A DNA stretch of 64,000 nucleotides from Sphingomonadales bacterium (GCA_025356275.1 JANXUK010000067.1:4526-68525); one strand, 5' to 3'; positions 4,129 through 64,000 are shown, counted from the stretch's first letter. Notes: a model not told the origin generated them from the letters alone. Numbers and translations: made by a program.

Positions 4129-4334
4129 GTTCTATCCCATCAAACAGTCCGGCGTTCCCGGACCAAAACCCGCCGGAGCGAGCAAAACAATAGCCACCCC
4201 GCGCAAGGCAGGGTCGGCGAAATGAAGGCGAGCCCCTAGGCCAAGCCGCCCCCACTGTCAATCGGCGGCACGCGCCATTTGCCATCAGGCAAGCGGGCGC
4301 TGGCAAGTGTGGCGGCGCATGCTATGGCGCAACC

Positions 4335-4922
4335 ATGCGCCTCACCTGCCGCCCTGCCCCGCCGATCCGCCGCCTGTTTGGGCGATTGGGCGTTGTCGCG
4401 GCGCCGCTGGCTTTGGGCGCGTGCGGGATCGCCGATTATCCGTCGCTGCAAACCCCCGCCGCGCCGCAGCCAGCCGCCATCCCGTCCCCCGCCACACCCT
4501 CCCCGGGCCGCATCACCGGCAGCGCGGTTCCGGTGGTGGCGACGCCCGGCGCGATGCCCTCCGCTGCCGCCGATCCCGCCGCGCTGTTGGCCAGCGGCAC
4601 GGCAGCGTATGGCGCTTTCGTGGCCCGCCGCGCCGCCGCCGAGGCGCTGGTGGCCGCCGCCGCGCATGCCGCGCCGGGCAGCGAGGCCTGGGCCGTGGCC
4701 ACCGTGGCGCTGGGCGCGCTGACCGATTCGCATGGCCAGACCGCGGCGGCACTGGCCGGACTGGAGCGGCTGTACACCGACGATCAATTGGCGCGCGCCG
4801 ATGGAGACGCGACGCCCGAGGCCGACGCCCACACCGCCGCGATCGACGACGCGCGGGCGCAGGTGCAGGCAATGATGGACGACGAATCGGTGGTGCTGGA
4901 CCGTCTTGGCGAGTCGCTTTGA
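4335..4922 (+). CDS. Hypothetical lipoprotein
   Basis: Lipobox-like LALGAC, Pro/Ala linker, helical C-terminus; no family recognised. Confidence 0.7.
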   Translation: MRLTCRPAPPIRRLFGRLGVVAAPLALGACGIADYPSLQTPAAPQPAAIPSPATPSPGRITGSAVPVVATPGAMPSAAADPAALLASGTAAYGAFVARRAAAEALVAAAAHAAPGSEAWAVATVALGALTDSHGQTAAALAGLERLYTDDQLARADGDATPEADAHTAAIDDARAQVQAMMDDESVVLDRLGESL

Positions 4923-15670: not shown

Positions 15671-16846
15671 TCAGCCGGCGGGGGCCGGCGAGGGAGCGGA
15701 TGCAGCGGCATTCGCAGCGGGAGCTGGGGCAGTAGCTGGCGCGCCGTCGATCTTGCCGCCCGAATGCGTCATCACCCAGGCGTTGAACTGCGGACGGGGC
15801 AGCGCCTCGACCGCGATCGGCATATAGCCGTGACGCACGCCGCACAGCTCCGAACACTGACCATAATAGACGCCGGGCACCTTGATGAACAACATCTTCT
15901 CATTGATACGGCCCGGCACCGCGTCCAGCTTGAACCAAAGCGAGGGCACCGAGAACGAGTGGATCACATCGGCGCCGGTGGTCTGCAGCCGGATCGGCTC
16001 ACCCACGGGCACGACCATGCGATTGTCCGAGGCCAGCTGGCGCGGGCCGTCATCGTCGGTGCGGAAGCGCTCGCCCGGCTTGGCATCTTCCTTTTCCTTC
16101 AGGAAGTTCGAGGTAACCTCGATCCCGCCATTGTCGGGATAGGAATAGCTCCAGTACCACTGGTTGCCGGTTGCCTTCACGGTCAGCGCATTGGCCGGCA
16201 GCGCGGCATATTGCTTGGCCAGCAGCTTCATCGAGGGAACGAAGATCGCCACAAGGATAAAGATCGGGATCGCAACCCAGATCACCTCCAGCATGGTGTT
16301 ATGCGTGGTCTTGGAAGGCACCTTGTTGCGCGCGGAGCGGTAGGCGAATACCACCCACATCAACAGGCCCAGCACGAAGATGCTGATCGCAATGATCACC
16401 GGCATCAGGATCGTATTGTGCATCCACAGGGCATAGGTGCCATTGGGCGAATACTGGTCCTGAAAGCCGATGCCGCCATCGACCGGCATGCCCTTGCCCG
16501 CCGTGGGCTTCATCGGGGTATAGCCGCCGGTGGCGACGGTGAAATGATCGGCGCTGTAGGCAACCTTGGGGCCGGTGGCGGCAGCGCCCGGGCCGGTGTT
16601 GACCGGCGCGGCGACCGCCGGAGCAGCGGCGGCGGGTGCGGCGGGCGTAACCGCCGGGTCAGCTGTCGCAGGGACGGCGGGAGCGGCAGCGACCGAAGCG
16701 GCGGGTGCGGGCGCCAATGCCGCCGGGGCCTGACCCATCGCCAGTTGCGGCACCGCGAACAGCGCAAGCGCCAGCGGAAGCATCCGCAATTTGCGGCCGA
16801 TCGCCGCCAAATTCATACCCTGGTTGATCATTTCGGGGTCGATCAT
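15671..16846 (-). CDS. coxB: Cytochrome c oxidase subunit II with long Ala/Pro linker; start may be 16819
   Basis: GNQWYWSY, DVIHS, CSELCGVRHGYM CuA motif. Confidence 0.97.
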   Translation of the reverse strand: MIDPEMINQGMNLAAIGRKLRMLPLALALFAVPQLAMGQAPAALAPAPAASVAAAPAVPATADPAVTPAAPAAAAPAVAAPVNTGPGAAATGPKVAYSADHFTVATGGYTPMKPTAGKGMPVDGGIGFQDQYSPNGTYALWMHNTILMPVIIAISIFVLGLLMWVVFAYRSARNKVPSKTTHNTMLEVIWVAIPIFILVAIFVPSMKLLAKQYAALPANALTVKATGNQWYWSYSYPDNGGIEVTSNFLKEKEDAKPGERFRTDDDGPRQLASDNRMVVPVGEPIRLQTTGADVIHSFSVPSLWFKLDAVPGRINEKMLFIKVPGVYYGQCSELCGVRHGYMPIAVEALPRPQFNAWVMTHSGGKIDGAPATAPAPAANAAASAPSPAPAG

Positions 16847-20854: not shown

Positions 20855-21970
20855 TTGGCGCGCAAGTTTCTTTATGGCATCGTCTGTGTGGTGGTGCTGG
20901 TGATTGCGGGGATGTTCGGGCTGAGGTTTTGGGCCAAGGAACTGTCGCAGCTGGCCTTTGTGCCGGGGTCGGCATTTTCGGCGGCGGCACCTGTTGCGAG
21001 CGGGGCCTATGCCGATCCGGCACTGTGGATCGCGCGCGGCAACAGCGACGCGCATGATCCCGCCCGTTGGCAGCCGCGCGGCGCCGGGCCCCCTGCCCCA
21101 GTCAAGGCAGCGGTATTCTTCGTCCACCCGACCAGCCATTACGACCGCAGCCACTGGAACGCCGCGTTAAGCGATGCCGCCGTCAACGCCCGCGCCGAAA
21201 CCTTCGTGCGCGGGCTCGCCAGCCCATTTGCTGGGGCGAGCGAGCTATGGGCGCCGCGCTATCGGCAGGCGACCTTCGGCGCATTCATCGCGAAGAAGGC
21301 GGACGGCCAGCGAGCGCTCGATCTGGCCTATGGCGATGTGCTGGCGGCGTTCGATGCGTTTGTGGCGGCGGTCGATCCGAAGGCGCCGCTGGTGCTGGTG
21401 GGGCACAGTCAGGGCGCGTTACACCTGCTGCGGCTGCTGCACGACCGGGCCTATGGCCAGCCTTTGGCGCGCCGGATCGCGGCAGCTTATGTGATCGGCT
21501 GGCCGGTCAGTATGACGCATGACCTGCCGCAGACGGGCTTGCACGCCTGCGCCGGGCCCGATGACAGCGGGTGCCTGCTGTCCTGGCAGAGCTATGCAGA
21601 GCCGGCCGACCCGTCGCTGATGCAGGAAGCCTATGCGCATTTCCCGGGGCTCGATGGGCAGGCGCGCGGCGGCAGCCCGATGCTGTGCACCAACCCGCTG
21701 ACCGGCGCGCCCGACAGCGCGGCACCGGCCAGCGCCAATCTCGGCACGCTTATGCCCGATGCCAACCTGTCGGGCGCGGCGCTGGTGGCGGGAATGGTGC
21801 CGGCGCGGTGCTCGCCGCAGGGGTTCCTGCTGATTGGGCCAGCGCCGGAGCTGGGGCCGTTCGTTCTGCCCGGCAACAATTACCATATCTATGACATCCC
21901 GCTGTTCTGGGGCAATATCCGCGCCGATTTTGCACGGCGCGTGACGGCGTGGAAGCCGGACAAACGGTGA
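20855..21970 (+). CDS. DUF3089-type alpha/beta hydrolase
   Basis: FFVHPTS, WAPRYRQA, nucleophile elbow GHSQG. Confidence 0.85.
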   Translation: MARKFLYGIVCVVVLVIAGMFGLRFWAKELSQLAFVPGSAFSAAAPVASGAYADPALWIARGNSDAHDPARWQPRGAGPPAPVKAAVFFVHPTSHYDRSHWNAALSDAAVNARAETFVRGLASPFAGASELWAPRYRQATFGAFIAKKADGQRALDLAYGDVLAAFDAFVAAVDPKAPLVLVGHSQGALHLLRLLHDRAYGQPLARRIAAAYVIGWPVSMTHDLPQTGLHACAGPDDSGCLLSWQSYAEPADPSLMQEAYAHFPGLDGQARGGSPMLCTNPLTGAPDSAAPASANLGTLMPDANLSGAALVAGMVPARCSPQGFLLIGPAPELGPFVLPGNNYHIYDIPLFWGNIRADFARRVTAWKPDKR

Positions 21971-22434
21971 TCACCACGCTGGCCGGGGAATTCGCGGCGA
22001 CCTTGCCCGGCGGCGGCGCGTTGATTGGGCTAGACCTTGGCACCCAGACCATCGGCACGGGCTTTTGCGACGCCGGCTGGCGCATCGCCTCGCCCGGCAA
22101 GACATTGCGGCGGGGCAAATTCGGCGCGGACCGCGCGTTGCTGGCGGCGTTGGTCGCGGAGCGGCAGGTGGCGGGCATCGTCATCGGTCTGCCGATCAAC
22201 ATGGACGGCAGTGAGGGGCCCCGGTCGCAATCGGCGCGTGCCTATGCGCGGAATCTGGCCACGCTGGATCTGCCGATCCTGCTGTGGGACGAACGCTGGT
22301 CCACCGCCAGCGCCGAACGCGGCCTGATCGCCCAGGACATCAGCCGGGCGCGCCGCGCCGCGCGCATCGACGCGGCAGCAGCGGCGGTGATCTTGCAGGC
22401 GGCGATAGATGCGCTGACGGGCGGCGTGTTTTAG
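21967..22434 (+). CDS. ruvX: Holliday junction resolvase-like / pre-16S rRNA nuclease
   Basis: IGLDLGTQTIG, GLPINMDG, WDERWST, IDAAAAAVILQ; GTG 21967. Confidence 0.95.
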   Translation: MITTLAGEFAATLPGGGALIGLDLGTQTIGTGFCDAGWRIASPGKTLRRGKFGADRALLAALVAERQVAGIVIGLPINMDGSEGPRSQSARAYARNLATLDLPILLWDERWSTASAERGLIAQDISRARRAARIDAAAAAVILQAAIDALTGGVF

Positions 22435-61012: not shown

Positions 61013-61572
61013 ATGGCTGAGCGTTCTGGAGGGGCATCGCCGCCAAGTGGCTACGATTGTGGGGACCGGGCGACCCCGGTGCGATCGACCGGGTGATGCC
61101 CGTAGTTTACAGCGATCTGCGCCGACTGGCGGCATATTATTTGAACGGCAGCGATGGTGAGCGAACATTGCAACCGACCGCGCTGGTCCACGACGCTTAT
61201 CTGCGGTTCGGCGCGGCCAGGAAATATGATTGGCAGGGGCACGGCCAGCTCATCGCGGTGGTGTCCCGCTTTATGCGGAATATCTTGATCGATAACGCGC
61301 GGGCGCGCCGGGCCGCGAAGCGGAATCCGGCCGAGCTCGAAGCTTCTGAGGCCATCGGTGAAGACCTGCTCGATCTTCTGTCATTGGACGCTGCGCTTCG
61401 GCAACTGGAGAGCCTGCATCCCCGTCGCGCGCGGGTGGTTGAACTGCGTTTCTTCGGCGATCGTGATCTGGCGGAAGTCGCGGCGGTGCTCGAGGTCTCT
61501 TTGAGCAGCGTCGAGCGCGATTGGCGATTTGCCCGTGCATGGCTGCATGATCCTATGAATCCGACGCCGTGA
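61013..61572 (+). CDS. ECF-type sigma factor (TIGR02999-like); 5' end apparently frameshifted, in-frame TTG at 61057
   Basis: VYSDLRRLA, TLQPTALVHDAYL, RARRAAKR, VVELRFFG, VERDWRFARAWL; ATG 61013 is out of frame across a GGGG run. Confidence 0.85.
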
Positions 61573-64000
61573 CCCTGAGCCGTCAGGACAGAATCGAGGC
61601 AATTTTCGATTCGGCGACGGGCATTGACGTGCCTGAACGCGCATCATTCCTGGACCAGGCTTGTGGCGGAGATCTCGCGCTCCGCCGGGAAATCGAGCGA
61701 CTCCTGATGGCGGATGCGGTTACCGGCCAGGTGGACGGCTGGCAACGATCCGCGCTTAACCAGGAAGTTTGCGCGGAGCGAACAACACCTGATCGCCGGA
61801 TAGGCGAAGTGTTGGGCCGCTATCGGCTGACGGCCATCGTCGGCGGCGGCGGCATGGGCCGGGTCTATCGCGCGGTTCGCGCCGATGCGCAGTTTGAAAA
61901 GTCCGTCGCGGTCAAGCTCATCCACTCCCCGCTTGCCAGCGACGACCTTCAGGCGCGGTTTAAGGCGGAACGCCAGATTTTGGCCACGCTGGAACATCCC
62001 AATATCGCGCGTCTGCTTGACGGGGGTTTGACGGATGACGGGCTACCCTATCTGGTCATGGAGTTTGTCGAGGGCGTCCTCCCCGCCGATTATTGTTGTC
62101 AGCACGGGTTGGGCATGCGCGCCAAGCTGGCCTTGTTCCAACAGATCTGTGCCGCAGTCCATTACGCGCATCAGCATATGGTCATTCATCGCGACCTCAA
62201 ACCGGCCAATATTCTGGTCACCGCCGGGGGGGAGCCAAAGCTGCTCGACTTCGGCATCGCCAAGGTTCTGACGCCGCAGACAACCTATGATCCCGCGATT
62301 ACAAGGATGGACAACCGGCTCCTGACGCCCCGCTATGCGAGCCCGGAACAGATTCGTGGCGAGGCCATCACGACAGGCTCCGATGTCTTTGCACTGGGGG
62401 TCTTGGGGCATGAGCTGTTGACGGGCGCGTCGCCGTACCGCTACCTCACGGGCCATCCTCTCGCGCTGTTGAATGAAATCTGCTAGGAGGAGCCGGCACG
62501 GCCAGGTCGGCTGGAACCTGCTCTGCGCGGCGATCTTGACCGCATACTCCTCAAAGCGCTGAGCAACGGCCGAGTGAGCGATACGCCTCCGCCGCCCAGC
62601 TCTCGGATGATATCGGGCGGCACCTTGACGGCCTGCCCGTCGAAGCCCGGGGTCATGGGGTCGGCTACGTCACCGCCAAATTCGTGCGTCGCAACAAGGC
62701 ATTCGCCGCAGCTACGGTGATGATTGCGGTCGTGCTGATCGGCAGTCTGATTATGGTTGACCATGCTCGGCGGGGTGCGGAAACCCGGTTCAGGCAGGTC
62801 CATCGGCTCGCGCATGCGGTAATCTTCGATTATCAGGATGCCATTGCCGGACTGCCCGGCTCGACCCCGGTGCGCGCCAGGCTCGTCCAGGATGCGCTCG
62901 GTTATCTCGAAAAACTGTCGGCGGAAGCCAACACGCCCGATCTCGAGCGCGAAATCGTGGAGGGGTATACCCGCATCAGCAAAGTTCAGGGCGATTCCTA
63001 CGGCTCGAACCTGGGTGACACCGCCGGTTCGCTCGCCAGCATTCATCGGGCGATTGCTGCCTCCCAGCATCTGCTGGGCGCCGACCAGACTCCTGCTTCG
63101 TTGAAAGCGGCTGCGGACGCATTTTCGGTGCAGGCCTCGTTATTTTTCTCCAGCGGAAAGCTCGAAGCCGCAGCAGCCGACTATCGGACCGCGCTGGACC
63201 TGCGCAACCGGGCGGCCAAACCATCGCCCGGAGATATCGAGAATGCCCTCGCTCTTGCGGACATCGACACCCATCTCGGCGACCTCGATGGCGCCACCGG
63301 GTTGCAGAACCTTGGCCGCAGCAGGCAGGCAGCCGTGATGTACGGCCAGGCGGATGCGATCCTCACCAGCTTGCAGCAGCGATTTCCTGCCAATCTTGAG
63401 GTGACCCGCCAGCGGTTCGAAGTGCTGCTCCAGCGGAGCGAGGCGATTGCCAGCCTAGTGGTTCGTTTCCGACATTTGCATCCCTTTCGGCAAAGGCAGA
63501 GGCAAATGTCGGAAACCATAACAACCACTAGATATTATATTGTTTCTAGTGGATTTTTTGATTTTGACATTCGAAAGCACCGCTTTGCCGAAAGCGGGAC
63601 TCGAATGTCAAAATCAATCCACCAGGTCAGCCACAATCTTCACAAATCATGCGTGAGCAGGCTCTGGCTCAGATAGAGCAGATCGTGGCGGTTTCTCCGG
63701 AGGATACGGCGTCGCAGTTTGAGCTGGCGAATACCGAAAATCGCCTGAGTCACAGCCTGATCGATGCGCGGCAGGGAGTGGAGGCCGGACGGCACCTTGC
63801 CCGCATGGTTGCGATCCTCGGCGAGTTGGCCCGTGCCGATCCGAAAAACGCGCTTTACGAACGATCGCTGGGCGTATCGCAGATCGATTGGGGCACGGCG
63901 CTGCGTGTTTCGGGCGACCCCAGCGGCGCCTTGGCGCATGACCGCAAGGCGCTCGACATTGCCGGACACTTGCACGCCGCCGATCCGGCCAACGCCGATT
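61569..64000 (+). pseudogene. Ser/Thr protein kinase with TM and TPR region; three lesions; runs off window end
   Basis: GGGGMGRVY, VAVK, HPNIA, HRDLKPAN, DFG, TPRYASPEQ; TAG at 62484, -1 frameshift near 62562, MITE insertion at 63455. Confidence 0.88.
63455..63625 (+). mobile_element. CTAG-bounded MITE-like element, copy 5, intragenic
   Basis: CTAGTGGttcgtttccgac...atcaatccaCCAG inside kinase TPR region. Confidence 0.9.

Follow-up and report, generated by a model that had tools for sequence, protein, structure and literature searches.

Positions 63455-63625 of the window (the whole 64,000-nucleotide stretch of DNA analysed here, from a Sphingomonadales bacterium) are very probably occupied by a 171-bp non-autonomous MITE of the IS630 family, inserted at a CTAG of a kinase gene that looks horizontally acquired and is now a pseudogene with three lesions. 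The window corresponds to C142:4526-68525 of a 3.18-Mb draft assembly in 143 contigs, and this genome was the one searched for further copies. Disruption of a gene by an IS630-type MITE is textbook behaviour. No new mechanism is involved, and the case is a clean but ordinary MITE insertion in a decaying, probably foreign gene. It provides a homology-verified target (one CTAG) and boundaries for a high-copy MITE, together with a candidate partner transposase. It is also useful for annotation: such elements fragment assemblies, provide stop codons and inactivate genes. The features of the region are the following.

61057-61572, plus strand: ECF sigma factor gene (TIGR02999 / PF07638); overlaps the kinase start by 4 nt and appears intact
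61569-62483, plus strand: kinase pseudogene, first segment; codons 1-305, with the N-terminal region and the Pkinase domain
62484-62486, plus strand: premature in-frame TAG; homologues have E/D/N/Q
62565-62566, plus strand: -1 frameshift within KAL(S)K-RPSERY, where a Lys/Asn codon is reduced to 'AA'
62567-63458, plus strand: kinase pseudogene, second segment; last part of the kinase domain, transmembrane helix and first TPR-like half; ends at the left CTAG
63455-63625, no strand: MITE copy; 171 bp with the terminal tetranucleotides (CTAG...CCAG) counted in; non-coding, two hairpin modules
63455-63458, no strand: left CTAG, the target site; its TA would be duplicated under the IS630 model
63455-63531, no strand: hairpin module 1, CTAGTGGTTCG...CAACCACTAG
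63532-63545, no strand: AT-rich 14-bp linker, ATATTATATTGTTT
63546-63625, no strand: hairpin module 2, CTAGTGGATTTTTTGATTTTGACA...TGTCAAAATCAATCCACCAG; its outer arm bears the terminal 14-mer common to the resident IS630-family IS
63622-63625, no strand: right target tetranucleotide, the mutated copy (CTAG to CCAG)
63626-64000, plus strand: kinase pseudogene, third segment; second TPR-like half, with a stop about 506 nt past the window end

The reading frame of the kinase is resumed on the far side of the element. The window reads GCCAGC CTAG, then the element, then CCAG G TCAGCC (across the whole copy, ...GAGGCGATTGCCAGC CTAG TGGTTCG ... AATCCAC CAG G TCAGCCACAATC...), and these flanks are identical in sequence to those described in the original prediction. 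Deletion of 167 bp (63459-63625), which retains one CTAG, gives ...EAIASLGQPQSSQIMREQALAQIEQIVAVSPEDTASQFELA... and, as had been claimed, opens a TPR-like frame to the window end; the frame remains open for 299 codons past the junction, and its stop lies on the same contig. When the deletion is 171 bp, so that no CTAG remains, or 163 bp, so that two remain, stops are encountered within 16-12 codons. A matching frame by itself is expected in one case out of three, and at 65% GC long ORFs arise easily; therefore, homology must decide. The rebuilt protein, in which X stands for the residues at the two other lesions, is a Ser/Thr kinase-TPR protein of 923 aa. It is 41-52% identical to 12 intact full-length homologues of 905-926 aa, and both of its halves are colinear with the same 12 proteins. 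The alignment of the 13 sequences has no gap around the junction in any of them, so that the rebuilt protein has neither extra nor missing residues at this point. Gly631, which is composed of the G of CTAG and the GT of the right flank, is invariant (13/13). Leu630 is read from the CTA codon, and the homologues have L, Q or M at this position. The element was sought at the homologue loci and is absent from them, which bears out a transposon insertion. The test rests on homologues of this degree of identity because no close kinase orthologue was found in 150 congeners, the best match there being 34% identical over part of the protein. Judged from these alignments, the rejoining through one CTAG is more than chance.

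The junction also bears on the quality of the assembly. A repeat-induced misjoin could have placed two unrelated fragments around the element, as the assembly is a draft and many of its contigs end in the element repeat. The flanks, however, encode the two halves of a single protein, which follow each other directly, colinearly and in the same orientation. They rejoin this protein at the invariant Gly631, which makes a random misjoin unlikely, and we give this explanation next to no credence.

The excision of the element would rejoin the TPR-like domain and not restore the protein, because the TAG and the frameshift remain. Both of these lesions, as read in the draft assembly, fall within the C-lobe of the kinase. 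At the frameshift, KALS-AA, followed after the break by RPSERY, is aligned with KALRKxPxxRY of the homologues (motif KAL(R/S)KxPxxRY). The nonsense mutation has created a new CTAG at 62483-62486. On this reading of the frame, the kinase gene is a pseudogene with three lesions: the TAG, the -1 frameshift and the MITE. The claim that removal of the element restores the kinase frame is thus correct for the local frame and does not extend to the gene. Reassignment of TAG was considered and rejected, the internal TAG being a lone one beside a frameshift and neighbouring genes using TAG as their ordinary stop. A reading as an intron or an intein-like element was rejected as well, because the copies are dispersed and non-coding and are absent from homologues. 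The PF07638 sigma gene is located directly upstream of the Pkinase-TM-TPR gene and overlaps it; an overlap of 4 nt is likewise seen in P0002, the closest intact homologue.

A second copy, at C49:9421-9590, splits a 132-aa gene of the VOC/glyoxalase family. When one CTAG is kept, the product reads ...TARFYAELLELEERDTPAPL..., and its junction is gap-free in comparison with 11 intact congener orthologues (e.g. ...TARFYARIFGLERRDAPPPL...). A -1 frameshift is present in this gene, too, eight codons before the insertion point. The two independent intragenic copies agree and therefore indicate that the target had exactly one CTAG. All the copies are flanked by CTAG, with a single CTAG before insertion, and in such a sequence a 2-bp duplication of TA and a 4-bp duplication of CTAG look the same. 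The original prediction had defined the target as CTAG with TA or CTAG duplicated: the single CTAG before insertion, seen twice, stands, and the sequence does not tell the two forms of duplication apart.

Inspection of ORFs spanning the copy junctions gave no true intragenic insertions other than those in the kinase and in the C49 VOC gene. In this genome of 65% GC the search was swamped by spurious long ORFs, and most of the candidates were rejected as a real gene that ends at the junction or starts near it, extended by antisense junk. Empty sites were searched for in congeners with the joined flanks of the copies, concatenated into a query of 11.9 kb, which yielded only two scored candidates per genome. 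In the one case that crosses the junction, the copy that follows etfA on C115, the relatives are element-free and have CTGA where the own genome has CTAG. Their flanks are 84-89% identical, and this empty site does not define the target because the relatives are too diverged. No exact empty allele, excision footprint or polymorphic copy was encountered in the comparisons with these relatives.

The limits of the element, 63455 and 63625, were established by lining it up with about 50 other copies from the genome; they are fixed by the fact that these copies run from CTAGTGG to CCACTAG amid unrelated flanks. The element is small and non-coding: 171 bp with no ORF of its own, and frames that cross it are junk. 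Its predicted fold consists of two long hairpins (-79 kcal/mol, z = -11). Each hairpin module is itself framed by CTAGTGG/CCACTAG and is internally palindromic, and all four hairpin arms repeat the IS630-type terminal motif. The family-consensus TIRs are CTAGTGGTTCGTTTCCGACAT and, for the right end reverse-complemented, CTAGTGGATTGATTTTGACAT (CTGG... in the kinase copy). About 73 distinct full-length loci, which belong to two subfamilies, were found in the own genome by BLAST. About 50 further copies are 77-95% identical to the kinase copy, and the second subfamily is about 69% identical. The right end of the kinase copy has C at a position where T is found in 36 of the 38 copies aligned; hence the change from T to C is a later mutation, and the predicted decay of the right CTAG to CCAG is confirmed.

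IS630-family elements insert at TA, classically within CTAG, and duplicate the TA. The genome has six DDE_3 matches. A complete IS of 1152 bp at C31:21718-22869 has an intact ORF of 360 aa with HTH and DDE_3 domains, and its transposase belongs to NF033545 (IS630-family, NCBIfam; 256 bits versus a cut-off of 100). The TIRs of this IS begin with CTAGTGGATTGAT. Their first 14 nt are identical to the family-consensus right end of the MITE, and 19 of 25 positions match the left end. The match of the TIRs to a resident IS630-family IS and the CTAG target identify the element as an IS630-type MITE. The likeness is to the IS630 family as a whole (IS630, ISY100, IS870; Tc1/mariner superfamily), with CTAG as the target and a duplication compatible with TA. 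The MITE differs from the IS elements of this family in its length of 171 bp, in having no transposase gene and in its four end-like arms, which are arranged as two hairpins. The transposase ORF of the C31 IS ends in ...ESIH and is stopped by the TAG within the CTAG that terminates the IS itself. The transposase ORF of IS870 from Agrobacterium vitis reportedly stops in the same way, at the TAG of the terminal CTAG, so the C31 IS resembles IS870 in this respect. A CTAG-bounded single-hairpin unit of about 100 bp adjoins the left end of the C31 IS (21621-21721), and a relative of this IS, 74-76% identical, is found on C125.

These findings suggest the following pathway, in which every arm of the element would copy one terminal inverted repeat of the IS630 type. 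Acting in trans, a transposase of the IS630 family would cut a copy elsewhere, one from the lineage's own burst of copies, and paste it into the TA of the CTAG in codons Leu630-Gly631. The TA would thereby be duplicated, leaving a CTAG on either side, the right one of which would later become CCAG. The cut-and-paste mechanism and the TA duplication we infer from what is known of the IS630 family. For ISY100, the transposase alone is reported to be required for excision (PMC2170065). Going by terminal sequence, the C31 transposase is a candidate partner in mobilisation. This IS is present as one full copy, its TIRs are not identical to those of the MITE, and a better-matching master IS may be located in the unassembled contig ends.

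An alternative is that the element is moved by another transposase that targets TA or YTAR, such as IS711 of the IS5 group, and that its IS630-like ends are coincidental. IS711 of Brucella duplicates TA at YTAR and favours the palindromic Bru-RS repeats (PMC3163539), and just one full IS630-family copy with matching ends has been found here. Coincidence is nevertheless difficult to reconcile with 14/14 and 19/25 terminal nucleotides in common with the IS630-family IS and with a terminal motif that is repeated in all four hairpin arms. No other IS with such ends was seen, and we consider this alternative very improbable.

The element is not confined to the present genome. At least 114 stretches from named genomes across Alphaproteobacteria contain its terminal 25-mer, CTAGTGGTYCGWTTCYGACATTTGC, the carriers including Novosphingobium, Sphingobium, Sphingomonas, Sphingopyxis, Rhizobium, Ensifer, Phyllobacterium, Agrobacterium vitis, Brucella daejeonensis, Methylocystis, Nitrobacter, Caulobacterales and Rhodobacteraceae. 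The full-length two-module element of about 170 bp is found in 61 of the 114 matches listed. These 61 copies have mostly 69-80% identity, with up to 90% in Novosphingobium MAGs. The plasmid database gave four unannotated matches of 72-74% identity, and the element is thus rare on plasmids. A search of the literature on MITE, IS630 and CTAG in Alphaproteobacteria or sphingomonads found no description of the double-hairpin family.

Several known repeats are comparable. RUP, the repeat unit of pneumococcus, is, like other IS630-derived MITEs, a short, non-coding, high-copy and TIR-bounded element with TA duplication, for which an IS630-type transposase is presumed to act in trans. RUP and the Correia/NEMIS elements of Neisseria share these properties of size, coding content, copy number, termini and TA duplication with the MITE described here; they differ from it in sequence and in host phylum, and each is a single unit as opposed to a double hairpin. 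The Correia elements are not known to have a partner transposase. RIME1, the Rhizobium-specific intergenic mosaic element, contains two large palindromes. Bru-RS1 and Bru-RS2 of Brucella are palindromes of 103-106 bp that serve as TA (YTAR) targets for IS711 (PMC10800456, PMC3163539). RIME1 and the Bru-RS repeats are alphaproteobacterial intergenic palindromic repeats and resemble the element by description only; the Bru-RS repeats are about 60 bp shorter than the element. Full-length relatives of the element are found in Rhizobium, Ensifer, Agrobacterium vitis and Brucella daejeonensis. The element may be related to either of these repeats.

Compared with the consensus of the 38 aligned copies, the kinase copy has changes at 7 of 171 positions, 5 of which are private. 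The corresponding numbers are 1-2 for the youngest copies and 5-7 for the median copy, a scale on which the sequence of the kinase copy is that of a mid-aged fossil. The mutated terminal TA may hinder its re-mobilisation. Because of the seven differences and the mutated right end, the copy records a past insertion and not present mobility. What had been put forward as direct evidence of mobility is accordingly evidence of one past transposition and does not speak for current activity. In a tree of the 38 own and 61 foreign full-length copies, the kinase copy falls within a clade of 35 copies exclusively from its own genome (support 0.86). The nearest foreign copies among the matches listed are those of the Novosphingobium MAGs, which lie outside this clade, and the best foreign copies among the matches listed are 85-94% identical to the clade consensus.

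The surroundings of the insertion have a different composition. GC3 is 0.69-0.72 in the ECF-kinase pair versus 0.82-0.84 in gshA, rsmE and ubiA just upstream. The closest intact homologues of the kinase are metagenomic, about 50% identical, and lie in element-free loci of about 60% GC, the neighbours of which look Acidobacteria-like. The ECF-kinase pair looks horizontally acquired. The foreign segment may reach past the kinase, since the GC content is lower (0.61-0.64) up to about 66500. Downstream of the kinase, past the window end (64589-65389), there is a gene for a secreted protein with the look of a ricin-type lectin, followed by a TPR lipoprotein-like gene.

Which transposase acted and when the insertion took place relative to the acquisition are points that we infer. 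The element might have entered the kinase gene in a donor lineage before the ECF-kinase pair was transferred, in which case it would have no bearing on activity in the own genome; a donor could have carried the element, as the family occurs across Alphaproteobacteria. The kinase copy, however, with its 7/171 differences, sits inside the 35-copy own-genome clade, outside of which the best foreign copies listed are found, and the homologues closest to the kinase lie in loci that are element-free and, by the look of their neighbours, Acidobacteria-like. An insertion in the donor is therefore improbable in our estimate. The reverse order, insertion after acquisition, is favoured by the own-genome clade, by the GC3 contrast and by the lack of an orthologue in the 150 congeners, and on these sequence comparisons appears the better supported of the two. 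The original statement that the element was inserted after the island had been acquired is reasonable in this sense and falls short of a direct demonstration.

CTAG is strongly depleted in the genome, with 1,524 occurrences observed versus about 10,250 expected (o/e 0.15). After removal of the element, the kinase region within the window has two CTAGs only, the insertion site and the one due to the nonsense mutation. Every MITE copy brings four CTAGs, so a sizeable share of the CTAGs of the genome are found in MITEs. Many copies are located exactly on C-TAG stop codons of upstream genes, because CTAG is rare and contains TAG. The C-TAG of the element is the stop codon of the neighbouring gene at C80:1213-1382, C142:3556-3725, C108:25014-25183 and C115:8418-8588, and the genes stopped in this way are those of kynureninase, dihydroorotase, a membrane protein and etfA. 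In five congeners etfA ends in CTGA or GTGA (a TGA stop) and no element is present.

These positions raise the alternative that the element is mainly a structure selected by the host (for example as a terminator, as an RNA or as a source of stop codons), its location in the kinase gene being incidental. The double hairpin is very stable, many copies lie exactly on upstream TAG stops and the exact terminal 25-mer has been kept across orders. On the other hand, two copies destroy coding sequences, the stop-codon association follows from the rarity of CTAG and its TAG content, and the arms are repeats of transposase ends. The Rfam search of the element yielded no family, the only matches being sub-threshold chance ones to miRNA models, and a promoter and terminator scan of it detected neither promoter-like nor terminator-like signals. 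We regard host selection as highly improbable, and the element is taken here as an IS630-type MITE. A broader proposal would be a pan-alphaproteobacterial superfamily of CTAG-bounded double hairpins of about 170 bp, with 25-nt termini identical across Sphingomonadales, Hyphomicrobiales, Caulobacterales and Rhodobacterales, which might include the mechanistically unexplained RIME1 and Bru-RS repeats. All of its members would be serviced by IS870-like IS630 transposases, and the preference for the rare CTAG would lead the elements to accumulate on TAG stop codons, where they may have been co-opted as gene-end structures. This proposal is speculative and, in our view, rather unlikely to hold in full.

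The rarity of CTAG also accounts for tandem copies that share one. Two such pairs, each of one subfamily-A and one subfamily-B copy, are found at C92:21786-21954 with 21951-22118 and at C37:15614-15784 with 15781-15949. They are expected if new copies enter the CTAG that is regenerated at the end of an older copy. A different CTAG-bounded repeat family directly abuts MITE copies on C1, C108, C20, C59, C37 and C38. It has the forms CTAGAGCAAGATGCGAT...GCATCTTGCTCTAG and CTAGAGTCTTTGTTTTCGCATCG...GGCACGATGCTCTAG (e.g. C1:4566-4700), and CTAG is common to it and the MITE. Several repeat families seem to stack on the same rare CTAG target. A further repeat, with CTGAA(C/T)GACTA(C/A)C(C)GGCTGA... 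at its start, breaks three MITE copies at one and the same internal point, after ...GAATGTCAAA (C120:~4230-4631 and, at contig ends, C129:2000-2155 and C127:2174-2335). The nested insert on C120 is non-coding and about 240 bp long, and the right end of the MITE resumes beyond it.
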